Of a DNA stretch of 64,000 nucleotides, positions 5,362 to 21,770 are shown piece after piece. The DNA lies in assembly GCA_965248925.1 (NCBI GenBank), contig CBDFLE010000006.1, positions 512,001-576,000 on the forward strand. The letters run 5' to 3'. The position numbers and the translations under genes were made by a program. Numbering within the stretch: position 1 is the first letter of the stretch; the number at the start of each line of letters is the position of its first letter. Source of the DNA: Candidatus Multivoradales bacterium. Its GTDB lineage: Bacteria > Acidobacteriota > Thermoanaerobaculia > Multivoradales > J023. The notes under the pieces were generated by a model. The model saw nothing but the letters and a program-made list of their open reading frames with translations. It had not been told where the DNA came from and made no database searches.

Positions 5362-5970
5362 TCAGTCGGGCGGAAGTGATCGCTCGACGTCGTCACCCAG
5401 CTCTCGGGCGAGGAACATCTTGGCGGCCGTCCAACGGCGGGTCACCTTGGCGCGGGACCAACCCAAAACCTGAGCGATCTCTTCACCAGTGAGACCCGCG
5501 AAAAACTTCAAATCGACGACCTCCGCAGCCTTGGGATCGACCTCTCTCAGCCGTTCCAGAGCCCGGTCGAGGTCGAGCAGTACGGCAGAGTCGATGTCGG
5601 TCTCTGTCGCTCGGTCCGTCGCGCCGGTCAGGGACACCATGGTGACCTTGCCGGGCCGCTTCGCTCTCTTTTTGTGGTTCGCGTGGTCGATCAGGATGAG
5701 GCGAATGAGCTTCCCCGCGAAAGCGAAAAACTGCTTGCGGGTGTCCCAGTTCGTGCTCGGCCAGCCCATCAAGCGTAGGGTAAGCTCGCTGACGATCGCG
5801 GTCGGCTGAAGAGTATGGTTGCCATCTTCCCGCTGGAAGTAGAACTGAGCGGCTCTTCGCAGCTCGGGCTCGACTTCAGTGATGAGCGCGTCCAGGGCTC
5901 CATCTTCGCCTCGGCTCCAGGCTTGGAGAATGCCCGTAATGTCATCGGACGTCGCGATAGCGGTCGTCAT
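5362..5970 (-). CDS. ECF sigma factor, kinase-associated (TIGR02999/ECF43-like)
   Basis: DITGILQAWSRGEDGALDAL, HTLQPTAIVSE, VVDLKFFAGLTGEEIA; lies immediately upstream of the kinase. Confidence 0.9.
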   Translation of the reverse strand: MTTAIATSDDITGILQAWSRGEDGALDALITEVEPELRRAAQFYFQREDGNHTLQPTAIVSELTLRLMGWPSTNWDTRKQFFAFAGKLIRLILIDHANHKKRAKRPGKVTMVSLTGATDRATETDIDSAVLLDLDRALERLREVDPKAAEVVDLKFFAGLTGEEIAQVLGWSRAKVTRRWTAAKMFLARELGDDVERSLPPD

Positions 5971-6153
5971 ACTGTTCCCCCTCTCGGATCACAGATCCAA
6001 TTCGGCACCCCACCGACGGGTCGCTACCAAGGTCGGTTGGGGCGGGTGTGCAAGGCCAGATTCTTAGCGATCTCACGAGCAGCATATACGTTTTCTCTTT
6101 CTTCCTGCATTCCAGAAGAAGTCAGTCTGGTCGTCATCTGCAGCCTCATGACC

Positions 6154-7676: not shown

Positions 7677-8588
7677 TCAGCGATCCCGCTCAGGAGTCCG
7701 GGAATGCTGTTGTTCGCATTGGGTGCTGTCGGCCAGCGACCTGAGCTGTTCGGGAAGGCGCCGCCAGCCGGCACGAACTCGCTCGAAGGTGTCCGCGAGC
7801 CCGAGAGTCTTGAGGCGGTACTTGCGTCCCTTCACAGACGGGTCGCTGATGCGACATCCTTCGAGGTCTTCGATGCCGATGGTCTTGCCACGCCTGTAGA
7901 GTCTGAGCCCATGGTCCAGCAATCGGCGGTAGCAGTCGGGACCGGAACGGGCGACGGCCAGCTCACTGGCAATCACTTCGCGAATGGTCTCCTTACGGCT
8001 TGGGCTCCGGTCGCCACGCCCAAGGCGACGGCGGCGTTCTTGCTCGGATCTCGTTTCCCGCACTTCCCGGTCGCCTCGTGGCTGCCGTGACCTTCGTGAC
8101 CTCCGGCCTTGCGCCAGGGAGTTGGTGAGGAACGGGTAGCGCTTTTTCTGGTACTGCTCCAGCTCGCGCTGGATCTGGCGGAAATGCTGTTTCGAGAGTC
8201 GGAGCCGCTGGCTGGCGCCGACGTTGTTCGCCGAGATCAACAGATGGACGTGCGGGCAATCGGTGTCGTAGTGCGCCTTGGCGTAGGCGAGGGCGTACGG
8301 AGCCCGGAGATCGAGATAGCGTCGCGTCAGATCTTCCTGAATGGCGGGGGTCAGGGCCGAGCTATCGCCTTCCCCGAAACTCAGGATCTCGTGGTAGAGC
8401 ACGTTCCCGTTCTTACGTGCCGGGAGCAGGTGAGCGTTGGTGTTGAACTCGCCGCGAATGGCGGCAGGGTCGTCTTGGTGGATCTGGAGGTTGTGCAGAA
8501 GCGCGGAGCCGGTCTTCTCCGGTGCGCTGAAATAGTCCAGCAGCTGGCCGAAGGAAACGCTCTTACGCGCCATCGACTTGATCATCAT
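7677..8588 (-). CDS. MOB_P-type relaxase/mobilization nuclease
   Basis: Motif I (QLLDYF), motif II (YHEILSF), HUH motif III (AHYDTDCPHVHLLIS); start MMIKSMARK at 8588. Confidence 0.9.
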   Translation of the reverse strand: MMIKSMARKSVSFGQLLDYFSAPEKTGSALLHNLQIHQDDPAAIRGEFNTNAHLLPARKNGNVLYHEILSFGEGDSSALTPAIQEDLTRRYLDLRAPYALAYAKAHYDTDCPHVHLLISANNVGASQRLRLSKQHFRQIQRELEQYQKKRYPFLTNSLAQGRRSRRSRQPRGDREVRETRSEQERRRRLGRGDRSPSRKETIREVIASELAVARSGPDCYRRLLDHGLRLYRRGKTIGIEDLEGCRISDPSVKGRKYRLKTLGLADTFERVRAGWRRLPEQLRSLADSTQCEQQHSRTPERDR

Positions 8589-9139
8589 GGGGATCTGTTG
8601 AAGAGGAGGAGGAAGACGGGAGAGATTCAAGAACGACGCGGAGCATGGTCACCTGACGCTCCAGCATCACAACCAGTTGGGCACCTTTGCGGAGGTCATC
8701 GTGGGTGAGCCGTTGGTAGGTGCTGGCGCGATCGGCGATCTGGTGGAAGCTGGTACCGACCCGGCGAATCTCCTGGACCATGCCTTGTAGGCGAGATTCC
8801 AGGGATGCTGGTAGGAGCGATTTTCGATCGAGGTACGCCAGCCCTACGTCGCGCAGGAAGGGTGCGACACGGCTATGAAATTGGTTAGCAGCATGCGAGA
8901 TCTTGAAGTACTGATCCGGGTAGAGTGCCTGCACCGACGGAAACCGACCACCGATTCCGATTGAAAGTGACCAGTGATTCCAACGGAATCTGACCATCGA
9001 TTCCGATCGAAAGTGACCACTTTTCCGGGTCGATCGGAATGGGTGGTCAGATTGGATCGGAATCCTGGCCACGGCGGAGTTCGACGGTAGCGCGCTCCTC
9101 ACAATTGGGGTATTCCAGCCTCCTTGAAAGGAGAATTGG

Positions 9140-10714
9140 ATGCCGAGAGTGAGGACATCGATGCGCAAGATACGCGAGGTACTGAGACTGAAATGGCAGC
9201 ATGGCCTGTCGCACCGCCAGATCGGACGGTCGGTTCGGCTGGGCCACGGGACGGTGTGCAACTACCTGCTGCGAGCCAAGGTTGAAGGCCTGAGCTGGGA
9301 GCAAGTAGCAGCTTTGAGCGACGCTGAGCTGGAGCAACGCCTGTACCCTCGGCCGCAGCCGCTTCGGAGGGGTGGTCAGCGAGCCTTGCCCGACTGGACC
9401 AAGGTGCATGGCGAGCTGAAGAAGAAGGGCGTAACCCTGTCGCTGCTGTGGCAAGAGTACCGGGAGGACCATCCTGACGGCTACGGTTTCAGCCGCTTCT
9501 GTCAGCTGTACCGGATCTGGGAAGGGCGCCTGGATGTGTGCCTGCGCCAAGCCTACCGGGCGGGCGAGAAGCTGTTCGTCGACTATGCCGGACAGACCGT
9601 GAGGGTGATCGACCCGGCGACTGGCAAAGCGCGCGAAGCGCAGATCTTCGTGGCGGTGCTGGGGGCGAGCAACTACACCTATGCCGAATCAACGTGGAGC
9701 CAGGGCCTGGAGGACTGGATCGGCTCTCATGTGCGGACCTTCGCGGCTCTGGGCGGGGTGAGCGAGCTGGTGGTGCCGGACAATCTGAAGAGCGGCGTGA
9801 CCAGCCCGTGCCGCTACGAGCCGGAGATCAATCGCACCTACGCGGAGTTGGCCGAGCACTACGGCGTGGCGGTGGTGCCGGCGCGGGTGAGGAAGCCCCA
9901 AGACAAGGCGAAGGTCGAAAACGGTGTATTGCAAGTGGAGCGCTGGATTCTGGCCCGGCTGCGTAACCAGCAGTTCTTCAGCCTGCGAGAGCTCAACGAG
10001 AGCATCGCGAAGCTTCTGGTCGAGCTTAACGACCGTCCGCTGAAGGTGTTGGGCGTCTCGCGCCGAGCGCTGTTCGAGCAGGTCGATCGTCCTGCTCTGG
10101 GTGCTTTGCCGCTCCAGCCCTACGAGCTTGCCGAATGGAAGAAGGTACGCGTTGCCCCGGACTACCACGTCGAGTTCGAGGGCCACTATTACAGTGTGCC
10201 GTACCAGCTGATCAAGAAGCAGCTCGATCTGCGGGCGACGGCGCAACTGGTGGAGGTGCTCGATCGCGGCAAGCGTGTGGCTGCTCATCGTCGCAATCGG
10301 TGTCGGGGTCGGCACACGACCCAGAGCGAGCACATGCCCAAAGCGCACCAGGCGTACCTGGAGTGGACACCGACACGGCTGATCAGCTGGGCGGCGAAAA
10401 CAGGCCAGGCGACGGCCGAACTGGTGGAGACCATCATGCTTAACCGCTCCCATCCTCAGCACGGCTTTCGCTCGTGTCTGGGGCTGATGCGCCTGGGCAA
10501 GACCTATGGTGCCAATCGTTTGGAGGCTGCGTGCCGCCGCGCGCTCGCCATTCACGGCCTGTCCTACAAGAGCGTGAAGTCGATCCTGAAGAGCGGCCTG
10601 GACCAGCAAGCAGCGCCCGAGCCCACCGAAGTGACGGCGCCGATCGAGCACCACAACGTCCGCGGCGCCAGCTACTACAGTGCCGCGCGCCGCGAGGAGA
10701 CGCCGCCATGCTGA
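9140..10714 (+). CDS. istA: IS21 transposase IstA
   Basis: N-terminal HTH, FVDYAG, VPDNLKSGV and KAKVE DDE motifs. Confidence 0.97.
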   Translation: MPRVRTSMRKIREVLRLKWQHGLSHRQIGRSVRLGHGTVCNYLLRAKVEGLSWEQVAALSDAELEQRLYPRPQPLRRGGQRALPDWTKVHGELKKKGVTLSLLWQEYREDHPDGYGFSRFCQLYRIWEGRLDVCLRQAYRAGEKLFVDYAGQTVRVIDPATGKAREAQIFVAVLGASNYTYAESTWSQGLEDWIGSHVRTFAALGGVSELVVPDNLKSGVTSPCRYEPEINRTYAELAEHYGVAVVPARVRKPQDKAKVENGVLQVERWILARLRNQQFFSLRELNESIAKLLVELNDRPLKVLGVSRRALFEQVDRPALGALPLQPYELAEWKKVRVAPDYHVEFEGHYYSVPYQLIKKQLDLRATAQLVEVLDRGKRVAAHRRNRCRGRHTTQSEHMPKAHQAYLEWTPTRLISWAAKTGQATAELVETIMLNRSHPQHGFRSCLGLMRLGKTYGANRLEAACRRALAIHGLSYKSVKSILKSGLDQQAAPEPTEVTAPIEHHNVRGASYYSAARREETPPC

Positions 10715-11472
10715 GGCACGCGACGCTCGATCAACTCGCCGCGCTCAAGCTCCACGGTATGGCCAAAGCCTTTGAGGAGCAGCTGTCGATGGTCGATGTC
10801 TCAGAGCTCTCCTTCGAAGAGCGCCTCGGGCTGCTGGTCGAGCGCGAAGCGACCGAGCGATCCAGCCGCCGCTTGATAGCGCGGTTGCGAAAAGCCAAGC
10901 TGCGCGAGCAGGCGGCCATCGAAGACATCGACTGGCGAGCCAAGAGGGGCCTGGACAAAGGCCAGATCCTGCGCCTGGCCTCGTGCCAGTGGATCGCCGA
11001 GCATCTCAACGTGCTGATCACCGGCAAGGCCGGGGTGGGCAAGACCTTTCTCGCCTGCGCCTTCGCGCACAAGGCATGTCGGGAGGGTTACACCGCTTTG
11101 TACCTGCGGGTGCCGAGGCTGTTTCGCCAGCTCGCCATCGCGCGGGGTGATGGTAGCTACGAGAAGCTGCTCAAGAGCTATGCTCGCACAGACCTGCTCA
11201 TCCTCGACGACTGGGGGCTGGCGCCGATCGGGGCCAGCGAGCGGCGCGACCTGCTCGAGATTCTTGAGGACCGCTACGGCAACCGCTCCACGCTGGTGAC
11301 CTCCCAGCTACCGGTTGAGAGCTGGTACGAGGTCATCGGCGATCCGACCTTGGCCGACGCCATCCTCGATCGCATTGTCCACGGCGCCTACAAGCTCGCG
11401 GTGGACGGTGACTCCATGCGGGCGAAGAGAGCCGGCGGTATTCGCAAGGCCGCCCAGCGAGAGGCAAGGTGA
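10708..11472 (+). CDS. istB: IS21 helper ATPase IstB
   Basis: Walker A GKAGVGKT, Walker B LLILDDWG, ADAILDRIVH; ATG at 10708 overlaps the end of istA. Confidence 0.97.
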   Translation: MLRHATLDQLAALKLHGMAKAFEEQLSMVDVSELSFEERLGLLVEREATERSSRRLIARLRKAKLREQAAIEDIDWRAKRGLDKGQILRLASCQWIAEHLNVLITGKAGVGKTFLACAFAHKACREGYTALYLRVPRLFRQLAIARGDGSYEKLLKSYARTDLLILDDWGLAPIGASERRDLLEILEDRYGNRSTLVTSQLPVESWYEVIGDPTLADAILDRIVHGAYKLAVDGDSMRAKRAGGIRKAAQREAR

Positions 11473-12134
11473 GATCCAAGAGCATGCTGAAGCGATCGCC
11501 GATCCTGACCCATCAGCGGGCCTGCGGCCCGATCCGGACCCGACCCAAGATGGACTGTGGAAGCTGCCGCGGCTGTGGAAATCGCTCTGCGATTCCCACA
11601 GCCGCTTGGAAAACGCCCCCCGGCCACCCACCCGCGTTTCCCACAGCTACGCACAGCCCCGACGACGGGTTATTTGAATACAATCAACCAAGAAGAAGAA
11701 CCGGAAGGAGGGCTCCAGCTACAGCGAAAGTGGACACCTACAACTGAGGAGAGCGCCAGCGTCGCTTCGCTCCGACAAGTGGTCGGTTTCGATCGGAATG
11801 GCTGGTCAGTTTCGTCGGAATAGGCAGGTAGAGATTGCAAGTGATGCGGTGGGTGTAGGTGCCGTGCATATGGAATGAGGGGAAAAAGGACACGCGGCCA
11901 TGAGCGAGCGCCCACGAACACAGCGCACCCTACGTCCCATCGTAGGCTGCTGGAAGAGCCTCGGCTTCTCGGCAGCCGGTTTTCTACGGAAGAGCGGATG
12001 AATTGACGGTGGGAAGCTGACGGGCGGTGGACTGGCGAGCTTCGAGAGACCGCGAAAGAACTACTGTAGCGGCGATCCCGCTTAAGGTTCCATTAATAAT
12101 TCCAGTGCGTCACAGTTCACAGCTGTGTTGTTTC

Positions 12135-12235
12135 GGGGGTCGTGGGGGCAGCGCCCCTACGCAAGATAGGACGCTCTGCGGACGGTGCAATTGGGCGGAC
12201 GAGCTGTGCTCGGCTGCCCAATTGCAATCTTGCCC
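12135..12235 (-). other. Candidate oriT (IncP-like nick region plus inverted repeat)
   Basis: Minus-strand CCTATCTTGC (12161-12170) resembles the RP4 nick region CCTATCCTG^C; adjacent hairpin TGCAATTGGGC...GCCCAATTGCA (12186-12226); upstream of mobC-relaxase. Confidence 0.55.
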
Positions 12236-12388: not shown

Positions 12389-15300
12389 ATGACACCGGAT
12401 TTCACCTACGACGTTTTCTTGAGTCACAGCTCTCAGGACAAGCTCGCCGTGCGCGCTCTGGCAGAGCGATTGCGAGAGGACAGAATAAGAGTCTGGTTCG
12501 ATGAGTGGAAGATTGGCCCCGGCGACAGTATTCCAGCGAAGATCGAAGCAGGACTGGAGCAGTCGCGTGTGCTCGTGCTTTGCATGTCGGACAGTGCGTT
12601 CGGCTCTGACTGGGCGCAGCTAGAGGCCGGCACGTTCCGCTTTCGCGATCCACTGAACAGCGATCGCCGCTTCATCCCGTTGCGGCTCGACGATGCTCCC
12701 ATCAGAGGCTCCCTCGCTCAATTTCTCTACATCGACTGGCGGATTGAGGATCATGAGCAAGCCTACCTCGGATTGCTCAAGGCCTGTCGGGAGACCGAGC
12801 CAGGAAGTGCAACCGACATGCAGGATGAGAAATGGTGGTCGCGCGCGAAGCCACAGGATGTCGCCGCTCATGGGCCATCGAGGGATGACTTCCCTAAGAA
12901 GACCAAAGACACCCTTTCCCGAAGAGTAGGAATGAGGTGCTCCAATCCAGACTGCCGACAAACGACAAGCGGCCCACAATCCGATCCCGACAAAGCCATC
13001 AATATAGGTGTTGCCGCCCACATCACCGCTGCTTCGTCAGGCGGGCCGCGATATGACGGATCGCTTTCAAAGGTAGAGCGTTCTTCGATCCAGAATGGCC
13101 TCTGGCTCTGCCAGAACTGCGCGAAATTGGTGGATAGCGACGTAGGACGATTCACCGTCGAGTTGCTCCAAGAATGGAAGAAGAATGGGGAGAGGTCGGC
13201 TCAACGAGCGTTGGAGACCAGTGCGAGCATTGCTAGCGATATTGGCGATGCCGCCACCGACCGAAAGACGAGTGCTGCGAAAAGGAAGATCGACAAGGCG
13301 CAGGAGCTAGCTCGTTCAGGAAAACTCAGCGAAGCAATAGCGGAGGCTCTTGAGTCCCTCGAGATTGCGCGGAACGAGAACGACGAAGAGCAAGAGGTGG
13401 AAACCTTGCTCGCCTTAGCGCTGCTCTCGTCGGATCGACAAGGGATCGGAGACAGACTTCACTATTTTCAAGAAGCTGAGAAGAAAGTCGACAAGATCAA
13501 GGCACCTGCGGCTAAGGCTATCTACTTGCGCGCGAAGGCAGCAGTTCTGGGTGAGCAAGGCGACACCTCAGGAGCCGAGGCGCTCTACAAAGAGGCGCTC
13601 GACATCTGTTCGAGGGAGGAGGACGACGAGAAAAGAAATCTTGCGACTCAAGCGTGCATCTTGCGGTCAGACTATGTCCATCTCCTTTGCGGTGAGAAGA
13701 GATATGAGGAGGCGGAAGCAGTTCTAAGGGCGTGTGAAGATTATGCGCGCGACAACCGCGATGCTAGGAACACAGAACTCCTTGGGGCGGCGCTGGAGGC
13801 CGGGATACATCTGTACCTCGATACTAAGGACAAGGAAGGAGCCGTGGCCCGAATCGAAGAACTTGAAGCTGCGGCCACCACGATAAGGCTAGCGGATCGT
13901 ATCGGCGGCGAGCTCCTCAATATCGCGAATCACGCGGCCCACAGAAAGATGTATGGCGCTGCCCTTCGCGCGGCAGAAGCGAGCATACGGTTGGGTCACC
14001 GCTGTGATGATGGCAAGTCGCCGGGCTTCCTGATCGGAGCGTTGTATACCGAGGCAATGATCTTGGCGAAATCTGGTGATGAGATGGCGCTAACCAAGGC
14101 CCAAGCAGTACTGAGCGCCTGTTGTAGGCCAGAGGATCAGGCCGTCAGACAAGCGGCCAGCCAGCTGATCGCGGAGATACGACGGACAGCTGGCGATTCA
14201 GAGTCGGCAGTTGATCTCGCGCGCGGGGCCTTAGCGTTGGCCACAGGAGGGCCAGAGAACATCGCTTTCTCGAAGTCTGCGCTGGCCCGAGCGCTGAATG
14301 ACAACGGCCAAACTGAGGAGGCGTTCAATGAGGCGAGCGAGGCGTGGGCGCTACTTGAGCAAGCTAGTATTCCGCCTAAAACGGCACTGGATGTTCTGGC
14401 TCAGGTAACCAACTATGGATCGCAGATCGGCAACGACGCTGGTGTTCGGAGCGCACTCGACACGATCGCTGTGTTACCAGACGAGGAGGGGGAACTCGAG
14501 GAGGAGAAGACCCGTGTCGTCGCGCGGGCGGATGCTAACCGTCAGATTAGAGAGAGGATTCTGGAGATATCAACGCCGTCGAGTTCAGAAGATGGCCCGA
14601 ATATCGAGGCAGGTGTAGCCACTCTCCAGGACGCGAACGCGAGAGTTGTCGAGCAGTTAATCGGCCTTTGGGATGAAGTACCGGAAGCCGCCGGAGGAAT
14701 CTATGACTTCTGGGGTCGGGGCAATTTTGTGCGCCTGCTCGAGAATGCTCGGCGTTACCCAACTAGTTTTAATGTAACAGTCGAGGTGCGCAGTTTAGAG
14801 GACGTGAAACGAGCGATTCGCCTGTGGGGCCTCTACGCTGATTTTCTTCTGCTTCTCTGGAAGGGCGAGTCTCAGAGTGGGCTGGCCATCGTGCCCTTTC
14901 CGCGAGATTTCAAGGGGCCCGGAGGCTGGGGCTACATTGTGGCTATGGGCGACGAAATGAAGGTCGAAGGCTCATCGAAAATATGGCATGGCGCGTTGGC
15001 GCAGATTTCAAGTATCCCGGACGATGTAGCTGCATTTCTTGCAACTGAAGCCCGGCGGTTTGTGGAGACGGGTCGCCTGATTGTCGTGTCGGCTCCAGCT
15101 GTAGGTTGCACCAACCCAGGTCACGGACCGTTTGAGCAGCTGCTCGCTGAGAGTGCAAACGCGATCCCAAGCGTACGCTGGAAGGGCTTTGAAGGTGAGC
15201 CGATTGGTCTTGTGCCGTACTCCCCGAACGCACCGTTGGAACTGCTAGCTGAGCTGACAGAGATCGAGGATGACCGGCTAAGGAAGCTGAGACTTCTTCT

Positions 15301-15709
15301 CGTTGAGCGGAGCAGACAGCTAGTGCCTGGCAATGAAGTGAAGGCCGGTGCAAGAATATTAGCTCTGGAGATTGACGACGCATTGCGTGACCTGACTGAT
15401 AGGACGGATGCCTTCTCTCGTAGGAAGGGACTGGAAAGAGCAGCCGAGCCACTGTGCGCTGGAATCGCCCGCTTTAGACGTGAGGGACTGGCACTGTCTG
15501 ACGAGGCTTCTCACTCCCCATTTGCACCGCTGTTCGTACTCCAGAGCTTAGGATACGGGTGGCGAGTTGACAGCGGGGCGATACCGAAGCCCCCAGGGCG
15601 TTTCCAGCCAGAGTCCGGTGACATCGTTGGGACATGGTTGGCTCCACCAACAGCGGGCTGGACGGTACCTATCATGCGCGCTGTCGATGCCGATGATAGG
15701 GAGACTTGA
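12389..15709 (+). CDS. TIR + HNH-like nuclease + TPR + unknown C-terminal domain fusion; putative defence protein
   Basis: TIR (YDVFLSHSSQDK...SDWAQLE), Zn/HNH-like (RCSNPDC...AAHITAASSGGPRYD...NGLWLCQNC), helical TPR-like middle; ATG at 12389 with AAGGA upstream. Confidence 0.85.
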   Translation: MTPDFTYDVFLSHSSQDKLAVRALAERLREDRIRVWFDEWKIGPGDSIPAKIEAGLEQSRVLVLCMSDSAFGSDWAQLEAGTFRFRDPLNSDRRFIPLRLDDAPIRGSLAQFLYIDWRIEDHEQAYLGLLKACRETEPGSATDMQDEKWWSRAKPQDVAAHGPSRDDFPKKTKDTLSRRVGMRCSNPDCRQTTSGPQSDPDKAINIGVAAHITAASSGGPRYDGSLSKVERSSIQNGLWLCQNCAKLVDSDVGRFTVELLQEWKKNGERSAQRALETSASIASDIGDAATDRKTSAAKRKIDKAQELARSGKLSEAIAEALESLEIARNENDEEQEVETLLALALLSSDRQGIGDRLHYFQEAEKKVDKIKAPAAKAIYLRAKAAVLGEQGDTSGAEALYKEALDICSREEDDEKRNLATQACILRSDYVHLLCGEKRYEEAEAVLRACEDYARDNRDARNTELLGAALEAGIHLYLDTKDKEGAVARIEELEAAATTIRLADRIGGELLNIANHAAHRKMYGAALRAAEASIRLGHRCDDGKSPGFLIGALYTEAMILAKSGDEMALTKAQAVLSACCRPEDQAVRQAASQLIAEIRRTAGDSESAVDLARGALALATGGPENIAFSKSALARALNDNGQTEEAFNEASEAWALLEQASIPPKTALDVLAQVTNYGSQIGNDAGVRSALDTIAVLPDEEGELEEEKTRVVARADANRQIRERILEISTPSSSEDGPNIEAGVATLQDANARVVEQLIGLWDEVPEAAGGIYDFWGRGNFVRLLENARRYPTSFNVTVEVRSLEDVKRAIRLWGLYADFLLLLWKGESQSGLAIVPFPRDFKGPGGWGYIVAMGDEMKVEGSSKIWHGALAQISSIPDDVAAFLATEARRFVETGRLIVVSAPAVGCTNPGHGPFEQLLAESANAIPSVRWKGFEGEPIGLVPYSPNAPLELLAELTEIEDDRLRKLRLLLVERSRQLVPGNEVKAGARILALEIDDALRDLTDRTDAFSRRKGLERAAEPLCAGIARFRREGLALSDEASHSPFAPLFVLQSLGYGWRVDSGAIPKPPGRFQPESGDIVGTWLAPPTAGWTVPIMRAVDADDRET

Positions 15710-15887: not shown

Positions 15888-17018
15888 ATGACCTCCGCAT
15901 CACGCCCACGTCTCATCGCCGAGAACCTCACCCAGATCCGCCAAAACACCAACTGGCGCCAGTTCTTCGAAGCCCTGAAGCTCCCCAGAGACCCCAAGAA
16001 ATCCAAAGACCACGACTGGTGGGCCAAGAGCCCCTTTCGACCTGACGAGCGTACTGCCTCGTTCCATATGAACGCTCGCGGCTGGTATTGCCACGCTACA
16101 AGCCAGGGCGGCGGCCCCATCGAATTGGTGCAGCGTCTCCATCCGGGAATGCACTGTTTCGATGCTGGCCGATGGCTTCTGGAGCATGGCGTCAGCCGCG
16201 TTGTATCGGATGTTCGGGAAGATCTTCATCTTCTCGAAGGCGCAGATACCGTTCAGTCCGAGAAGGAGCCCTCGAACGAGCCAGTCCGGCAGGATCTCCG
16301 GAGCCAGCTCTCCGCGAACCACCGGCTCTGCGCCGCTCGGGGCGTCCCTTCCGAGATCTACCGAGAATTGGGTGCTGGCTTCCTGGATCGGCCAATTCGG
16401 AAGAATGGGAGACCCGATCCACTGAACCACCGAATCGTGTTCCAGATCCGGGGACTCAAGGAGAACGAGACCGGAGAGCTTCATGCCGTTGTCCTCGGTC
16501 ATATGGGCCGAGCGACAACAGAAGACCAGGCCGACCGGGATGGCAAATGGTGGACGTATGCAGGATTCAAGAAAAGTCTGGAGCTGTACAACCTCGACCA
16601 CGCGATCCTTGACGATGAGGCCGTTGACCAAGCCAAGGGTACCGAGCATCTTCTCGTCGTGGAGGGACTGTTCGATGTCGCCAGGCTCTACGCCGCCGGC
16701 ATTCGCAACGTGGTCGCTACTTTCGGCGCCAGCCTCAGCACAGCTCAGCTCAGGCGACTCGATCTCATCAGCGAGATGGTCGGTGTCAACCGGTTCATCA
16801 TCTTCTACGATCGAGACCGGGCTGGACACAAGGGTGCCAAGAAGGCTCTTGAGGCGATTACGGCTTCGGGGCTCGGCATTCAGGCTGAAGTCTTCGATTG
16901 GAACCGCGTCTGGGAATCGACCGTCCGAGGTGATGTCGGCATTCCCGCATCGATCACCGATCCCGCCGAGTTCTCCCTCGGGCAGCTTCAATGGCTCCGT
17001 CATGAGGGGATCCTGTAA
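15888..17018 (+). CDS. DnaG-like primase (degenerate CHC2 zinc-finger region + Toprim)
   Basis: SPFRPDERTASF...WYCHATSQGGGPIELV; Toprim VVEGLFDV...ATFGASLS...FYDRDRAG. Confidence 0.85.
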   Translation: MTSASRPRLIAENLTQIRQNTNWRQFFEALKLPRDPKKSKDHDWWAKSPFRPDERTASFHMNARGWYCHATSQGGGPIELVQRLHPGMHCFDAGRWLLEHGVSRVVSDVREDLHLLEGADTVQSEKEPSNEPVRQDLRSQLSANHRLCAARGVPSEIYRELGAGFLDRPIRKNGRPDPLNHRIVFQIRGLKENETGELHAVVLGHMGRATTEDQADRDGKWWTYAGFKKSLELYNLDHAILDDEAVDQAKGTEHLLVVEGLFDVARLYAAGIRNVVATFGASLSTAQLRRLDLISEMVGVNRFIIFYDRDRAGHKGAKKALEAITASGLGIQAEVFDWNRVWESTVRGDVGIPASITDPAEFSLGQLQWLRHEGIL

Positions 17019-17030
17019 CCGTCCTCGCCC

Positions 17031-17918
17031 ATGAAGATCTCCAGCTTCCACCGGGAGTTCAAGCATTACGCGCTTCTAGGGAAAGGCATGACCAACGGCG
17101 TCTACCGCTCAATCGGCTACACCCTTCGGATGCTGTGTCGATATGCGGCGACTGAAGAAATCGGCTCGTTGACGCCGGACATGATTCGCGCTTTTCTCTA
17201 CTACGGACGAAGCGAGCGCGGCTGGGCGGCAAAGACCTACCGAAATCACTGGCAGTACCTCAAGATCTTCTTCGACTTCTGTCAGCGGCAAGGCTACGTC
17301 CGCTCCAATCCCGTCGAAGGAATCGAGAAGCCGAAGCTCCCGGAGCGACTCCCACGTTGCCTTTCTCACGAAGACTCCTTGAAAGTCCTGGCATACTCGT
17401 ACGGCTACGATTGGCGGTACCACCTTGAAGCTGCACGGAATCACGCGATCATCGCGACTCTGATGATGACCGGCCTCCGGCTGCAAGAGCTTCTGAATCT
17501 CGAAGTCCACGATCTCGACCTGTCGGGGTGCGGGATTCTCGTGAGGCGAGGGAAGGGCCGCAAGGATCGGCTCGTTCCTGTTTACCACAAACTTCTGCCC
17601 ATCCTTCGTAACTTCCTGGAAGCGAAGCGCCAGTCTGGGAAAATCTCTCGCTGGCTGTTCACGGGCGTCAAGTCTGACAAGCAGCTCGCGCAAAAGGACG
17701 TTCGTCGGATCTGCCAAAGAATCTCCGTCGCCTGCGGTGTCAAGTTCACTCCTCATGTTCTCCGGCACACCCTCGGCCGCGAGCTGGTAGACAACGGCGT
17801 CGATATCAAGACGGTGCAGCGAATCTTTGGTCACGCTCAGGTGACCACCACCGAGATCTACACTCATCTTTCTACGCGAGCGTTCAATGGGAATTTTCAA
17901 AGGGCGAGAATCTTTTGA
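17031..17918 (+). CDS. Tyrosine recombinase/integrase (XerC/D-like) 1
   Basis: TGLR, GKGRK, HVLRH, FGH and TTEIY catalytic motifs. Confidence 0.95.
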   Translation: MKISSFHREFKHYALLGKGMTNGVYRSIGYTLRMLCRYAATEEIGSLTPDMIRAFLYYGRSERGWAAKTYRNHWQYLKIFFDFCQRQGYVRSNPVEGIEKPKLPERLPRCLSHEDSLKVLAYSYGYDWRYHLEAARNHAIIATLMMTGLRLQELLNLEVHDLDLSGCGILVRRGKGRKDRLVPVYHKLLPILRNFLEAKRQSGKISRWLFTGVKSDKQLAQKDVRRICQRISVACGVKFTPHVLRHTLGRELVDNGVDIKTVQRIFGHAQVTTTEIYTHLSTRAFNGNFQRARIF

Positions 17919-18049
17919 CAGATCGCGAGGAAATCTCTACGGTGTGGATACCTGCCTTCAGGTCGCTGAACATCGGAAGCCCATCTTTGGGTCACCCATC
18001 GGAATGCCGCATAGGAACTTGCATTACGGGACTTGAAAGCCACTGAGCT

Positions 18050-18096
18050 GGCTCATAACCCGAAGGTCGCAGGTTCGAGTCCTGCCCCCGCAACCA
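18050..18096 (+). other. 3' fragment of initiator tRNA-Met (att-like site)
   Basis: GGCTCATAACCCGAAGGTCGCAGGTTCGAGTCCTGCCCCCGCAACCA matches the anticodon loop (CAT), T-arm, acceptor 3' strand and CCA of tRNA-fMet; the 5' half is absent. Confidence 0.9.
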
Positions 18097-18185: not shown

Positions 18186-19112
18186 ATGTCTGAAATTGAA
18201 CAACTCCATCGGCAATTCTGCGAGTTCTCGCTGACCTTCAAAGCGAATACTCCACGGACGATCAAGTGGCTCCGCGCCACGTTCGCCGATTTTCTGCGCG
18301 GGACTGAGTTGACCAGCGCGACGCAGCTCGACCGAAGAACAATCGAGAACTGGATCGTCCGCAAGAAGCTGGAGAACAGCTGGTCCGCGAAATCGGTGCG
18401 GAACAATCTCCAAGCCTTGAGCCTCTTCTGCGACTGGCTGGTTCGGGAGGAGTATCTGGTCGAGAATCCGACATCCCAAATCCCGAAACCCAAGCTGCCA
18501 CATACAATCCGTCCGCATCTGACGGTAGAGACAGCCCAGGATCTTCTCGACTGGACGCGGAACTTCCCGTTTGGGTATGCCTTCGAGCGAGCGCGAGCCA
18601 CGGCCATTCTCTCCACCTTCCTCCACACCGGCATTCGCCTGGAAGAGCTGAGAAACCTCCACTGCGTCCATGTCGACCTCGAAAACCGCTCCCTATTCGT
18701 GGAGAAGGGAAAATGCCAGAAGGATCGAATCGTTCCGTTCGGCCTACCGCTAGTGGAGGCGCTTCAGGAGTACTTGCGCCATAGAACCAGATTGAAGAAG
18801 AGCTGCCCCTATTTCTTTGCGGCGATGCGGCAAGACAGCCAGATGGGAGACTCGGTGATCAAGCGGCTCGTTTCCAGGCTGCGCGACAAGAGCGGGATCT
18901 ACTTCTATCCACACATGCTGAGGCACACCTACGCCACATTGATGTTGCAGGGCGGGGCCGACATCAGGGCGGTGCAAGAACTGTTGGGCCACGCCTCGAT
19001 CCTTTCGACACTGCCGTACCTGCATACGACGACGGCGCATCTCCAGGCGCAGATCCAAAAGTATCCGCTCAATGTAGATTGGCAGGGGCCTCACGGCATC
19101 AAGGGCCTCTGA
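18186..19112 (+). CDS. Tyrosine recombinase/integrase (XerC/D-like) 2
   Basis: TGIR, GKCQK, HMLRH, LGH and STLPY motifs; ATG at 18186. Confidence 0.95.
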   Translation: MSEIEQLHRQFCEFSLTFKANTPRTIKWLRATFADFLRGTELTSATQLDRRTIENWIVRKKLENSWSAKSVRNNLQALSLFCDWLVREEYLVENPTSQIPKPKLPHTIRPHLTVETAQDLLDWTRNFPFGYAFERARATAILSTFLHTGIRLEELRNLHCVHVDLENRSLFVEKGKCQKDRIVPFGLPLVEALQEYLRHRTRLKKSCPYFFAAMRQDSQMGDSVIKRLVSRLRDKSGIYFYPHMLRHTYATLMLQGGADIRAVQELLGHASILSTLPYLHTTTAHLQAQIQKYPLNVDWQGPHGIKGL

Positions 19113-19161: not shown

Positions 19162-19992
19162 CTAGCGGTCGACTTTCAAACGAGCGCGGAGTTCGGCGAG
19201 GTTCTCCTCGATGTGGCTCGGGATAGGCACTTGCCGGTTAAGGGTTTCACGAAGAACCTGATACTTCTCATGCCATTGCCGGAAGTCCCGAAGTTCTTCT
19301 TTAAGCGAAAAGGCAAGAGCCTCGACGCAGGTGACGGCAACCATGGTGTACAAGTTGCAGAGGTTTCGAAGCACCTCTTCGTCGAGAGGACCACCGAATC
19401 TTCCCGCGAAGGCAAGCCCTCTGCCTATCTGCCCGCCATCCTGAAAGCTAGTGAACGCTGACGTCACCGGGAGGACGCTAGCATGCCCAAGAGGAGCCGT
19501 AATCAACCATGCCGTCCTGAGTCTTTGGAAAAGTTCACTCGGTATTGAGTCGAGTCTCCGTAGAACCGAACCCCCGGTGCCCTGTCGTGAATTCCAGACC
19601 TTCTGAAAGTCTGCCGGTGAGTGGACGCTGAAAACTTGGAAGATCGAGGCTTCTGCGGCCCCTCGCGAAAGCGTTAGGCTCACACGCGGATGAGCAATAA
19701 CGCTGCTGAACCAGCCCCATAAGAGATGATCGGCGGCGAAGCAGGCGAGGGCGACAGAGAGTCTGGGTGTCTCCGAAAAGTCCTGGCCGGAGAGAACATT
19801 GAGCCCACCAAGGTGAAGCTCGAACGCGGGTTTCAGTACAACGGCTTCAAGCTCGCGTACGATCTCTTTCGATTCAGGATGGGCATTGGCCGTGATCCAT
19901 TGATTGTAGGTCTTCTCGGCACTCTCAAATGCCTCAGCCTCCGTGAGCGTGGGGGCAACCTCCTCGCGAGAGGGCAGTTTCTGATGAGTCAT
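19162..19992 (-). CDS. Hypothetical protein, possibly HEPN-like helical fold
   Basis: 276-aa ORF; LSRGAAE and ...APLGH motifs loosely resemble HEPN-superfamily patterns. Confidence 0.65.
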   Translation of the reverse strand: MTHQKLPSREEVAPTLTEAEAFESAEKTYNQWITANAHPESKEIVRELEAVVLKPAFELHLGGLNVLSGQDFSETPRLSVALACFAADHLLWGWFSSVIAHPRVSLTLSRGAAEASIFQVFSVHSPADFQKVWNSRQGTGGSVLRRLDSIPSELFQRLRTAWLITAPLGHASVLPVTSAFTSFQDGGQIGRGLAFAGRFGGPLDEEVLRNLCNLYTMVAVTCVEALAFSLKEELRDFRQWHEKYQVLRETLNRQVPIPSHIEENLAELRARLKVDR

Positions 19993-20051: not shown

Positions 20052-21377
20052 CTACTGGGCCGAGGACTTGACGAACAGGAAGCCGACTCCACAAGAGGGT
20101 GGGGACAACCAGTGGAAATGACCATCCTCCAGTGAATCCGGAGCAGTCTTCCTTCGTTGGAGTTTGTGTCGACGAAGAGGCATTCGACGACGCCGAAACG
20201 GCTTTCTCCGCCCCAAATCCCAAAGCAAGTACAAGGGATTCCGGCGAAGCTCCAGGCCGCTGTCAGAGGCCTGTCGAAGACACTCGCAAAGTCCTGCCGC
20301 GGCAACTCCTCCGGCAGCCGCCACGAGAGCTGTCCCAACTGCTCCAGTTGCTCCAGCCGCACTTCCTAGCGCGGCTGCGGTGGTGCCAACAATGCCTCCC
20401 AGCCCCGTTACTGTTGCTCTGAACCGACGAGCCCGATCTGAAAGAGCCAGCTCCGAGACCTCGTAGTTGAGTTCCGAAACAAATTCCTCTAAGCGGTCAT
20501 GAGGAGAGGCCTCAGCAAGTCGGCGAAACGCGACTCGTAGGCGTTCAAGTTCAACAGGGGAATCCGCCATCATGCTGTCGAACTCTGCGGGTGCCATCCC
20601 GTCCAACACCGGAAGATCAAGTGATAGCAGCTTTTCCTCGGTTTGACTCAGCATCGCGCTATCCCGGAGAGGGAGCGCTCCCACAAGATTCTCGAAGCCA
20701 GTGCGAACATCGTCGGCGGCGGACGACAGTCCAATCAGCTCTTCCGGCGCAACAAAGACATCACCGCGTGAGAACGCGAGTGGTCCTTCTTCGACGATCC
20801 AATCCCCGACGACTTCTGGTAGCAAGCGAGCGTAGCCAAAGATCTCAGACCAGAGTCGACCGCGCATCTTTATCTCGTTGGTGATCGCTAAGTATCCCCA
20901 CCCAGCATCCCAGAGGCTGTCGGGTTCGCCCGGATGGAGATGCGACACTCGCACTGGTCTACTGAGTGCTCCTCGCCATAGGAATTCAATTGGAACCCCA
21001 AGCAACGCTAGTCGGCGATATGTCCAACGCATCTCGTCGACGAATTGAACTGAGACTTGGAGTGGACGGACTGCGTTTAGGTTGTTGTGGATCAGCCGCC
21101 GCGCATAGTTTCCGCGAGCCCAGAAGTCCAAAGACGCCGAGCGGCCCCTAGCTGACTTCATCCAATCCAGCAGCAGATCGTATTTCGGCGCTGGTGGTTT
21201 ACCAGAGGGGTAAGACGAGAGATCGAATGGCGTCGCTGGGTACGCATATAGCTCCGCCGAGCGGGGGTCTTTACCATCGATCGTGATCCTAGCTTTCGGT
21301 TCCAATTTGGCAGGATCCCTTTCCTGATGTCGTGGTCTCTGACCTTGGTTGCGTCGACTTTGGCAATCAGATTGCAC
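20052..21377 (-). CDS. Hypothetical protein homologous to the C-terminal domain of the TIR-HNH-TPR protein; start uncertain
   Basis: Shares collinear DFWxRGN, LW[KR]G, GWGY, PL[YF]xLxxLG and WLxPP motifs; has an extra Gly/Ala hydrophobic segment. Confidence 0.8.
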   Translation of the reverse strand: MQSDCQSRRNQGQRPRHQERDPAKLEPKARITIDGKDPRSAELYAYPATPFDLSSYPSGKPPAPKYDLLLDWMKSARGRSASLDFWARGNYARRLIHNNLNAVRPLQVSVQFVDEMRWTYRRLALLGVPIEFLWRGALSRPVRVSHLHPGEPDSLWDAGWGYLAITNEIKMRGRLWSEIFGYARLLPEVVGDWIVEEGPLAFSRGDVFVAPEELIGLSSAADDVRTGFENLVGALPLRDSAMLSQTEEKLLSLDLPVLDGMAPAEFDSMMADSPVELERLRVAFRRLAEASPHDRLEEFVSELNYEVSELALSDRARRFRATVTGLGGIVGTTAAALGSAAGATGAVGTALVAAAGGVAAAGLCECLRQASDSGLELRRNPLYLLWDLGRRKPFRRRRMPLRRHKLQRRKTAPDSLEDGHFHWLSPPSCGVGFLFVKSSAQ

Positions 21378-21695: not shown

Positions 21696-21770
21696 TGGAG
21701 CCGATGAGCGGATTTGAACCGCTGACCTGCTGATTACGAATCAGCTGCTCTACCCCTGAGCTACATCGGC
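21696..21770 (-). tRNA. tRNA-Thr(CGT)
   Basis: GCCGATGTAGCTCAGGGGTAGAGCAGCTGATTCGTAATCAGCAGGTCAGCGGTTCAAATCCGCTCATCGGCTCCA folds as a cloverleaf, anticodon CGT, encoded CCA. Confidence 0.97.

Follow-up and report, generated by a model that had tools for sequence, protein, structure and literature searches.

A single gene in the 64,000-nucleotide stretch of contig CBDFLE010000006.1 from a Candidatus Multivoradales bacterium (hereafter the window) encodes what is, in our judgment, probably a one-gene immune sensor-effector of the abortive-infection kind that works without an NTPase and belongs to a family so far undescribed. The gene lies at 12389..15709 on the + strand and specifies 1106 aa plus a stop, with the predicted layout TIR, HNH, TPR-like region and C-terminal domain (CTD). 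We refer to the protein as P0001, and all residue numbers below are its own. Its architecture, the conservation of residues at catalytic positions, its modularity, and the absence of both an NTPase and a partner gene are established by sequence comparison. A first-pass annotation of this DNA had made four structural claims about the protein (a TIR domain retaining the catalytic-position Glu of WAQLE, a zinc-binding HNH-like module, roughly 400 aa of TPR-like helices, and a C-terminal domain of no known kind) and had noticed no NTPase; all of this is borne out, and its coordinates agree with the open reading frame (ORF) list and the translation.

The relatives of P0001 fall into a pattern in which one part of the protein is held constant and another is exchanged. 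A search of 5.8 billion proteins, in which 8000 candidates were scored, returned 216 hits, and the best 120 of the 216 are listed. In a first set of relatives (P0002-P0058), all 57 proteins match residues 300-1106 at 45-73% identity in BLAST, usually end to end. These alignments mark residues 300-1106, that is, the TPR-like region and the CTD (about 800 residues), as a constant module, and the N-terminus as an exchangeable slot for what we call a "warhead". The slot holds an HNH domain alone in P0002, P0004 and P0006, while P0007 looks 5'-cut. In part of the set it holds a domain of about 170 aa with the signature "GDRKNDGY...FQVYAP"; no library names this domain, and its designation as restriction-endonuclease (REase)-like is our own reading of the sequence. 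Other REase-like N-termini occur in P0003 and in P0052, P0053 and P0055, a Ser/Thr kinase in P0017 (Pfam; mad6/PD-T4-6 in PADLOC), a DUF676 esterase in P0046, and helical or membrane-like segments in further members. The combination of TIR and HNH on this core is found only in P0001 and P0005 among the matches listed. The core of P0001 is, again among the matches listed, closest to that of P0003 (73%), the N-terminus of which is REase-like, and P0005 is 53% identical to P0001 in the core and 69% identical in the TIR+HNH cassette. By these comparisons, the protein is of mosaic origin.

The same picture emerges from a profile of the CTD. This profile (A2), which was built from the window and 11 related loci, was run over 1.84 billion representative sequences and matched 229 proteins at E<=1e-3, of which 184 pass E<=1e-10 and 112 pass E<=1e-30; most are about 1000 aa long and carry the CTD at their C-terminal end. 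Altogether, 206 of 268 collected proteins match the CTD profile, and 123 of these 206 have at least 60 aa before the repeats. When these 123 were sorted by motif, two had TIR+HNH, four had HNH only, 28 had the "GDRKNDGY" REase-like domain and 89 had something else. A Pfam scan of 44 of the 89 identified PNP_UDP_1 in nine, Mrr_cat in five, TIR_2, Pkinase and Trypsin_2 in two each (one of the Trypsin_2 matches being below cutoff) and DUF4365 in one, and it recognised no domain before the repeats in 23 of the 44. In PADLOC, the PNP domain of these relatives matches the PN-superfamily effector of CBASS (1e-35), and the DUF4365 domain matches the REase of short-Argonaute systems (Aga_REase). Nucleases, NADases, PNP, proteases, kinases, lipase-like enzymes and membrane segments make up the effector repertoire of Avs/NLR-like, CBASS, retron and Argonaute systems.

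The warhead of P0001 itself consists of two predicted enzymes. The TIR domain (residues 9-125; 12413..12763, + strand) matches Pfam TIR_2 (PF13676) with an E value of 3e-26 and 92.7 bits, against a curated cutoff of 28. WAQLE occupies residues 75-79, and E79, encoded at 12623-12625, aligns with the Glu of "DWTNYE" in the NADase AbTIR (8g83_A, E 6e-12), which we take to be the catalytic residue of AbTIR; PdTIR and others were aligned too. All ten TIR-bearing cassettes that were aligned have either WAQLE or WARLE. Following the TIR, residues 165-285 (12881..13243, + strand) form a putative Cap5-like HNH domain of the His-Me finger type with a Cys4 zinc site. This segment matches the PADLOC profiles PDC-M68A (1.6e-25), CBASS endonuclease effector (3.2e-18) and SAVED_HNH (1.2e-17), as well as solved Cap5 chains and an HNH endonuclease from the PDB (9om4_A, 5e-9; 7rwm_A, 4e-5). 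C184, C189, H211, N236, C241, C244 and D249, most of which belong to the pattern CxxPxC...AHI...N.LWLCxxC of the first-pass annotation, are invariant in 14 of 14 aligned cassettes; C184, C189, C241 and C244 are the zinc Cys set, and H211, N236 and D249 align with Cap5.

The cassette is not confined to the family. TIR+HNH occurs on other proteins at 60-69% identity, there joined to nSTAND3/nSTAND5, NACHT, NPHP3_N/AAA_16, pentapeptide or PIN-TPR-GreABC parts. In a second set of relatives (P0059-P0067), eight of nine have TIR+HNH (residues 1-290) at 60-67% identity with quite different C-termini, and the ninth, P0063, has only the TIR in common with P0001. The TIR by itself (residues 1-134) is 70-80% identical to domains that front WD40/small-GTPase architectures in about 50 further listed proteins (P0069-P0119) from many metagenomes. 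Judged by these alignments, the TIR of P0001 is a very mobile, well conserved module, and TIR+HNH is a mobile warhead of two enzymes that sensors of several kinds have acquired, bona fide STAND NTPases included. The strongest argument that TIR+HNH would act as an effector in P0001 as well is that the same cassette sits on STAND NTPases and these other proteins.

Between the warhead and the CTD are about 400 aa of predicted TPR-like helical repeats (residues ~300-700; 13286..14488, + strand), which make up the first half of the constant module. Their TPR matches are sub-threshold in P0001, but the region is kept in 57 of 57 close relatives, and relatives exceed the cutoffs: P0002 and P0052 score 30.8 and 34.2 bits, respectively, and P0160 scores 52 against a cutoff of 45 on TPR_MalT. 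No Walker A motif of the form [AG]xxxxGK[ST] is present in P0001; it occurs in five of 58 relatives, at unrelated places, as chance motifs do. Likewise, no STAND, NACHT or AAA family in Pfam (four families found) or NCBIfam matches P0001 at E<=1. With both the motif search and the family scans negative, the earlier statement that the protein does not fit Avs/NLR-like systems for want of a Walker A motif stands.

The CTD (residues 715-1106; 14531..15706, + strand) is a real domain, conserved across the alignments of relatives (A1-A3) well beyond chance, and it has no known family. We found no model for it in Pfam, NCBIfam, PADLOC or PHROGs, no match of residues 291-1106 to PDB sequences at E<=1, and no usable match for the CTD in the ESM Atlas. 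Structure prediction, which had been suggested as a check, yielded confident AlphaFold2 models, with pLDDT 79.1 and pTM 0.83 for the whole CTD (37 sequences) and pLDDT 89.6 for a subdomain comprising residues 760-950 (14666-15238, + strand; 74 sequences). In these models the CTD consists of N-terminal helices, a Rossmann-like alpha/beta subdomain (the one modelled separately), a long hairpin of helices, and a beta-rich tail, modelled with lower confidence, that contains "WLAPPxxGW". Foldseek returned nothing at E<=0.001 for either model. With VIA-align, the best Z for the whole CTD was 6.1 and concerned the helical hairpin only; for the subdomain it was 6.2 (5u76_A, root-mean-square deviation (rmsd) 3.2, 88 residues aligned), with 15 chains at Z>=5 and none of 48161 at Z>=8. 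The matches of the subdomain are a Rossmann-like mixture in which HUP-class binders recur, including ATP sulfurylases at Z 5.3-5.8 (for instance 4maf_A, Z 5.8, rmsd 3.9, 110 aligned), pantothenate synthetase, QueC and NadM. These Z values are at the background level of the aligner; the predicted fold of the subdomain is generic Rossmann-like and is assigned to no family, and no PDB fold matches the domain above that level.

Kept in at least 85% of 171 CTDs are D773, W775, G776, R777, G778, R782, R811, W824, K825, G826, G845, G846, G848 and Y849, and further along P877, L884, A888, G895, R896, L897, P901, A902, G906, C907, G913, P943, L953 and R968. K825, R896 and C907 are not kept in stand-alone forms of the domain, which are described below. 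We considered and rejected the CTD as a PD-(D/E)xK enzyme or a Cys-His hydrolase: K825 and C907 are lost in the stand-alone forms, and D818 is less than 85% conserved. From the pattern of conservation we infer, as an inference only, that the universal Arg, Asp, Tyr and Trp residues and the Gly-rich loops resemble an anionic-ligand site more than a catalytic triad.

One such stand-alone form is encoded in the same island as P0001, beside a tRNA-Thr gene. The 441-aa product of the ORF at 20052..21377 (- strand) aligns with the CTD alignment A1 in hhalign (probability 95%, E 2e-8) and is 29-33% identical, over about 370-398 residues, to six stand-alone relatives of about 390 aa that were obtained with the CTD profile; it has no match in Pfam, PADLOC or PHROG. 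The stand-alone forms keep "DFWARG", "GGWGY" and a tail resembling "WL.PP..GW", and they contain a hydrophobic stretch rich in Gly and Ala, situated close to the C-terminus in the 441-aa protein, that the fused forms do not have. Because these forms of about 390 aa and 441 aa exist, the CTD is, as far as homology can tell, an autonomous module rather than the mere tail of the TPR region. Directly downstream of the 441-aa ORF, on the same strand, is a 276-aa ORF (19162-19992, - strand) without a family; no homologue of it was found beside the relatives in loci L019 and L020, where the flanks extend for only 1.5 kb.

We examined the surroundings of the family in 11 related loci, which come from metagenome-assembled genomes (MAGs) of Planctomycetota, Acidobacteriota, Verrucomicrobiales, Syntrophobacteraceae and one alphaproteobacterium. 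All ORFs of at least 120 aa were compared all against all by BLAST (E<=1e-8), a comparison that is weaker for six of the 11 loci, whose flank on one side is shorter than 3 kb. No flanking ORF was common across the 11 loci in this comparison, the links found being otherwise those between the homologues and between antisense ORFs inside them. The single exception, between L003 1316-1678 (- strand) and L005 9074-9649 (- strand), with 43% identity over 84 aa and an E value of 4e-13, may reflect either a short conserved gene or coincidence in DNA rich in G+C. A Pfam scan of 31 neighbours and two homologues assigned a family to 13 of the 33. Among these 13, we count AbiEi, VirB4/TraG, a type I restriction-modification S subunit, Dcm with HATPase_c_3, DUF4062 and Toprim in favour of an immune role; HTH_17, ATP-grasp and QueC-like proteins and two proteins of locus L010, to which we return below, are among the others. 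In that same locus, from a Pirellulaceae MAG, the DUF4062 protein (5490-6128, + strand) lies immediately upstream of the family member and almost abuts it, the latter starting at 6132.

The distribution of the family is sporadic. The CTD is rare, with 229 clusters among 1.84 billion proteins. Within the same order the CTD profile found the domain in seven of 201 genomes, our own included, or five of 154 when only good-quality genomes are counted, and in the same family it found it in one of 23 others. Of these seven hits, two are of the short, stand-alone kind and a third is a remnant of 127 aa; the source genome of the window has one full copy plus the stand-alone ORF. The core was absent, by tblastn, from 72,556 plasmids and 50,697 phage records, and a scan of IMG/VR contigs gave no match; we regard these absences as neutral and as adding no extra support. 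The first-pass annotation had proposed a single-gene, dual-effector defence system, and this proposal gains support, at the level of sequence, from the swappable effectors, the occurrence of the cassette on STAND NTPases, the lack of a common neighbouring gene and the sporadic occurrence.

How might such a protein work? In the mechanism that we propose, P0001 would be inactive at rest, until its TPR+CTD module meets a trigger. A product of a phage or of another mobile element would bind to TPR+CTD, upon which the protein would self-assemble, and assembly would bring the N-terminal TIR and HNH domains together. NAD+ would then be degraded and DNA cut, so that the infected cell is stopped and the infection aborted, with no partner gene and no NTPase involved. 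In TIR NADases, the TIR domains must contact one another head to tail, and HNH nucleases of the Cap5 type must oligomerise in order to cut DNA. A mechanism based on clustering would fit the family as a whole because the module occurs with effectors that are activated by clustering (TIR, Mrr-type REase, PNP, protease). The CTD most likely provides a ligand-binding or assembly switch, which is the role of the STAND NTPase in Avs/NLR-type sensors. A more specific version of this idea, which we hold to be conceivable though doubtful when its four parts are taken jointly, is that the CTD is a new, non-P-loop Rossmann-like switch that binds an anionic ligand and drives assembly; that the ligand is a nucleotide or a small molecule derived from the invader or from damage, bound through the invariant Arg, Asp and Tyr residues and the Gly-rich loops; that the CTD stands in for the STAND NTPase in bacterial pattern-recognition receptors of a lineage of their own; and that it also works without TPRs, in proteins of the type encoded at 20052-21377, and so forms the core of a wider, unrecognised immune superfamily.

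Several points weigh against an immune sensor-effector. The term "defence" is guilt by association, because no defence library holds the TPR+CTD module, and trigger, assembly state and CTD function alike are proposals. The TPR matches of P0001 itself lie below cutoffs (27.9 bits against 30.1 for TPR_12, and similarly for NsdA-like TPR and the PADLOC TPR), and the fold matches of the modelled CTD are weak and generically Rossmann-like. At residue 901 (15089-15091), P0001 has a Ser ("VVSA") where 98% of the 171 CTDs have a Pro ("VVPA"). Many of the genes next to the relatives are commonplace or of no known kind: for 20 of the 33 proteins in the Pfam scan no family was found, and L010 contributes an acyl-CoA dehydrogenase and DUF3500. 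Finally, the "C..HH" of Cap5 reads "CQNCA" in P0001, with C244-A245 at the His-His position, and the metal site of the HNH domain may therefore differ from that of Cap5, or the domain may bind DNA only.

This last point bears on whether both domains kill. The TIR could instead serve for assembly or as a scaffold, or the HNH could be a non-cleaving, DNA-binding zinc module, in which case P0001 would not be a dual effector. The Cys-Ala at the Cap5 His-His position would be in keeping with this, and each domain can apparently work without the other, since there are family members with HNH only (P0002, P0004 and P0006) and many WD40/GTPase proteins with a closely similar N-terminal TIR only. Yet no aligned cassette lacks E79, H211, N236, D249 or any of the four Cys, and the pair moves as a unit onto STAND proteins, which suggests selection on both domains. 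We consider a single killing domain unlikely.

A second alternative concerns the conflict in which P0001 takes part, and here the genomic setting is relevant. On its predicted gene content, the locus is an integrative, mobilisable island, and the mobile-element setting described in the first-pass annotation holds, with a relaxase, a primase, two tyrosine recombinases and a tRNA fragment. The relaxase (7677..8630, - strand; Pfam Relaxase, E 1.2e-10) is MobA/VirD2-like. Between it and the TIR-HNH gene is an IS21-family insertion (8953..11830, + strand, ends approximate; Pfam rve / Mu-transpos_C_2 and IstB_IS21), with istA at 9140-10714 and istB at 10708-11472, both on the + strand and identified by Pfam, and with several short repeats at its termini (8953-9064 and 11774-11812). 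Directly downstream of the gene is a DnaG/Toprim primase (15888..17018, + strand; Pfam Toprim_4; PHROG phrog_47 DNA primase, 5e-35). The gene had been placed between an oriT and the primase; the primase side of this placement is correct, the oriT is no more than putative, and the repeats at 8953-9064, beside the relaxase, resemble the other end of the IS21 element and are better read as its termini. Two tyrosine recombinases follow the primase (17031-17918 and, probably, 18186-19112, both on the + strand; Pfam Phage_integrase). Between them we read by eye the 3' half of a tRNA-Met with CCA (~18045-18096, + strand), comprising an anticodon loop with CAT, a T-arm and an acceptor end with CCA; it is unique in the window, and neither ARAGORN nor Rfam made a call at this position. 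The fragment looks like the remnant of an attachment site, and because it and the TTG listed as the start of the second recombinase overlap, that gene probably starts at the ATG at 18186. Two ORFs of no known family come after the recombinases, and then tRNA-Thr (21696-21770, - strand); in the window, neither this tRNA nor the tRNA fragment was found to have a direct repeat from which the ends of the island could be read. The G+C content is 0.56-0.58 across the TIR-HNH gene, versus 0.60-0.69 in the right half of the window. We count this lower G+C, and the place of the gene between the relaxase and IS21 element on one side and the primase and integrases on the other, in favour of the immune reading too.

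Given this setting, P0001 could be the same machine employed in another conflict, namely in the form of an addiction module or of a weapon aimed at rival plasmids or integrative elements, serving the element that carries it rather than acting against phages. Besides its location in an island that also encodes a relaxase, a primase and two integrases, some relatives adjoin VirB4/TraG and Toprim genes, and no member was present in the phage collections searched. Set against this, no antitoxin-like partner is conserved across the loci, the effector repertoire matches that of phage-sensing proteins, and defence genes commonly ride on such elements anyway. We consider this alternative improbable, and an anti-phage function of the abortive-infection type remains the reading that we prefer. 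Far less probable still is a planctomycete signalling or housekeeping TPR scaffold without a role in conflict, whose N-terminal enzymes would act on cellular substrates in regulation: although TPR-kinase and ECF sigma genes abound in the genome and some members have protein kinase or HTH-like N-termini, the distribution is sporadic and spread across Planctomycetota, Acidobacteriota, Verrucomicrobiota, Alphaproteobacteria and Syntrophobacteraceae, the module is mosaic, and the N-terminal domains are destructive (nucleases, NADase, PNP, protease).

Some details of the gene and its vicinity remain to be described. The reading frame extends from the ATG at 12389 to the stop at 15707-15709, which gives the 1106 residues, and GAAGGA is located about 8 nt 5' of the ATG. 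We prefer this start over a GTG at 12185 because the alignment with P0005, a full-length relative of the same architecture (1109 aa, 99% coverage), begins at residue 1 of P0001; the longer frame is thus unsupported. At 12186-12226, with its end 163 bp 5' of the start codon, is a 19-nt inverted repeat whose arms are 89% complementary around a loop of 3 nt; it may serve as an operator or may terminate transcription that comes from upstream. The right end of the IS21 element is about 580 bp upstream of the start codon, and the element may influence the expression of the TIR-HNH gene. Among sequencing runs, no RNA run is listed as containing this DNA, and the four DNA runs that do contain it belong to a single study and probably represent the source sample. 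Our Pfam scan of the neighbourhood covered 18 ORFs between 3 and 35012. In the left part of the window, where G+C is 0.53-0.59, it includes an FG-GAP/DUF11 repeat protein (3-2252, - strand) and a Ser/Thr kinase with a long TPR region (2390-5284, - strand) that adjoins an ECF sigma factor (5362-5970, - strand).

The one-protein immune sensors that have been described in bacteria are mostly STAND NTPases (Avs, bNACHT) or isolated cases such as DSR2. P0001 and its relatives would follow the same logic of swapping the warhead and keeping the sensor on a different, uncharacterised core, with TPRs and a new domain in the place of the NTPase, and they occur in phyla (Planctomycetota, Acidobacteriota) that defence catalogues cover thinly. 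If confirmed, the family would provide a new sensor scaffold and a new domain awaiting a function, as well as a natural case in which two effectors, NAD+ depletion and DNA cleavage, are fired by one sensor. The constant module is a clean handle for finding all members, in the form of the hidden Markov model A2.

In comparing P0001 with known systems, we found no exact match to one already described. Its best scores in PADLOC are to PDC-M68A for the HNH part (1.6e-25) and to PDC-S66 for the TIR part (1.1e-19), but these are partial, single-domain matches (positions 4-116 of 253 and 148-223 of 282, respectively) that leave the CTD uncovered; neither model is matched over its full length, and no search for the partner genes of PDC-M68 was made. 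In the literature searched, PDC-M68 and PDC-S66 have genome-survey mentions only. Among titles and abstracts we found no description of the architecture of P0001, which may nonetheless be listed in supplements. The TPR and HNH passages of Kaur et al. 2020 (PMC7159879) concern other systems, and none of those passages describes the TPR+CTD module; a term search of bioRxiv 10.64898/2026.01.04.697583 gave no relevant passage. BcTir/BcTpr is described as an anti-phage system that has no NTPase and whose NADase domain is under the control of a C-terminal TPR region (bioRxiv 10.1101/2023.05.26.542521). By that description it is set apart from P0001 by having two genes and an N-terminal glycosidase-type domain and by lacking both an HNH and a CTD.

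The individual domains resemble parts of multi-gene systems. With ThsB of Thoeris and with AbTIR-type NADases, P0001 shares the TIR fold and the Glu at the catalytic position, and the ThsB profiles of PADLOC match its TIR only; unlike Thoeris, P0001 combines its TIR with a nuclease and a sensor module in a single polypeptide, and no ThsA-like gene (SIR2 or Macro/TM with SLOG) is found among the 18 ORFs scanned. With Cap5, the HNH-SAVED effector of CBASS, it shares the type of its putative HNH domain and the aligned "AHI..GPR", Asn and "xxD" motifs. It differs from Cap5 in that a second CxxC replaces the "C..HH", and in having no SAVED domain, since the SAVED_HNH profile was matched only at positions 3-120 of 368. 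No CD-NTase is present among the neighbours (IS21, primase, integrases). The gene is adjoined by the IS21 element and the DnaG-type primase, and the earlier observation that it has no adjacent Thoeris or CBASS partner is therefore correct.

Two single-protein systems come closer. DSR1 and DSR2 are reportedly single genes that join a SIR2 NADase to a large helical-repeat sensor without an NTPase. On this architecture, P0001 would be like them in being one gene with an N-terminal NAD+-degrading effector, C-terminal helical repeats and no NTPase, and unlike them in that its effector is TIR+HNH instead of SIR2, its effector slot is polymorphic and its CTD is distinct; no DSR model is among the 25 PADLOC families listed (the best 25 of 29 matched at E<=1). 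Avs and other bacterial NLR-like STAND sensors resemble P0001 as predicted here in being large single proteins whose N-terminal effector can be exchanged (TIR, Mrr/REase, HNH, protease) and which end in repeats of the TPR type, and nSTAND/NACHT proteins carry the very same TIR+HNH cassette. They are defined by a STAND NTPase between effector and repeats, whereas P0001 has no NTPase there and carries a CTD of 390 aa after the repeats and not before them. By analogy, then, the nearest working models for P0001 would be DSR2, for a sensor without an NTPase, and Avs, for the same effector logic, and P0001 belongs to neither.

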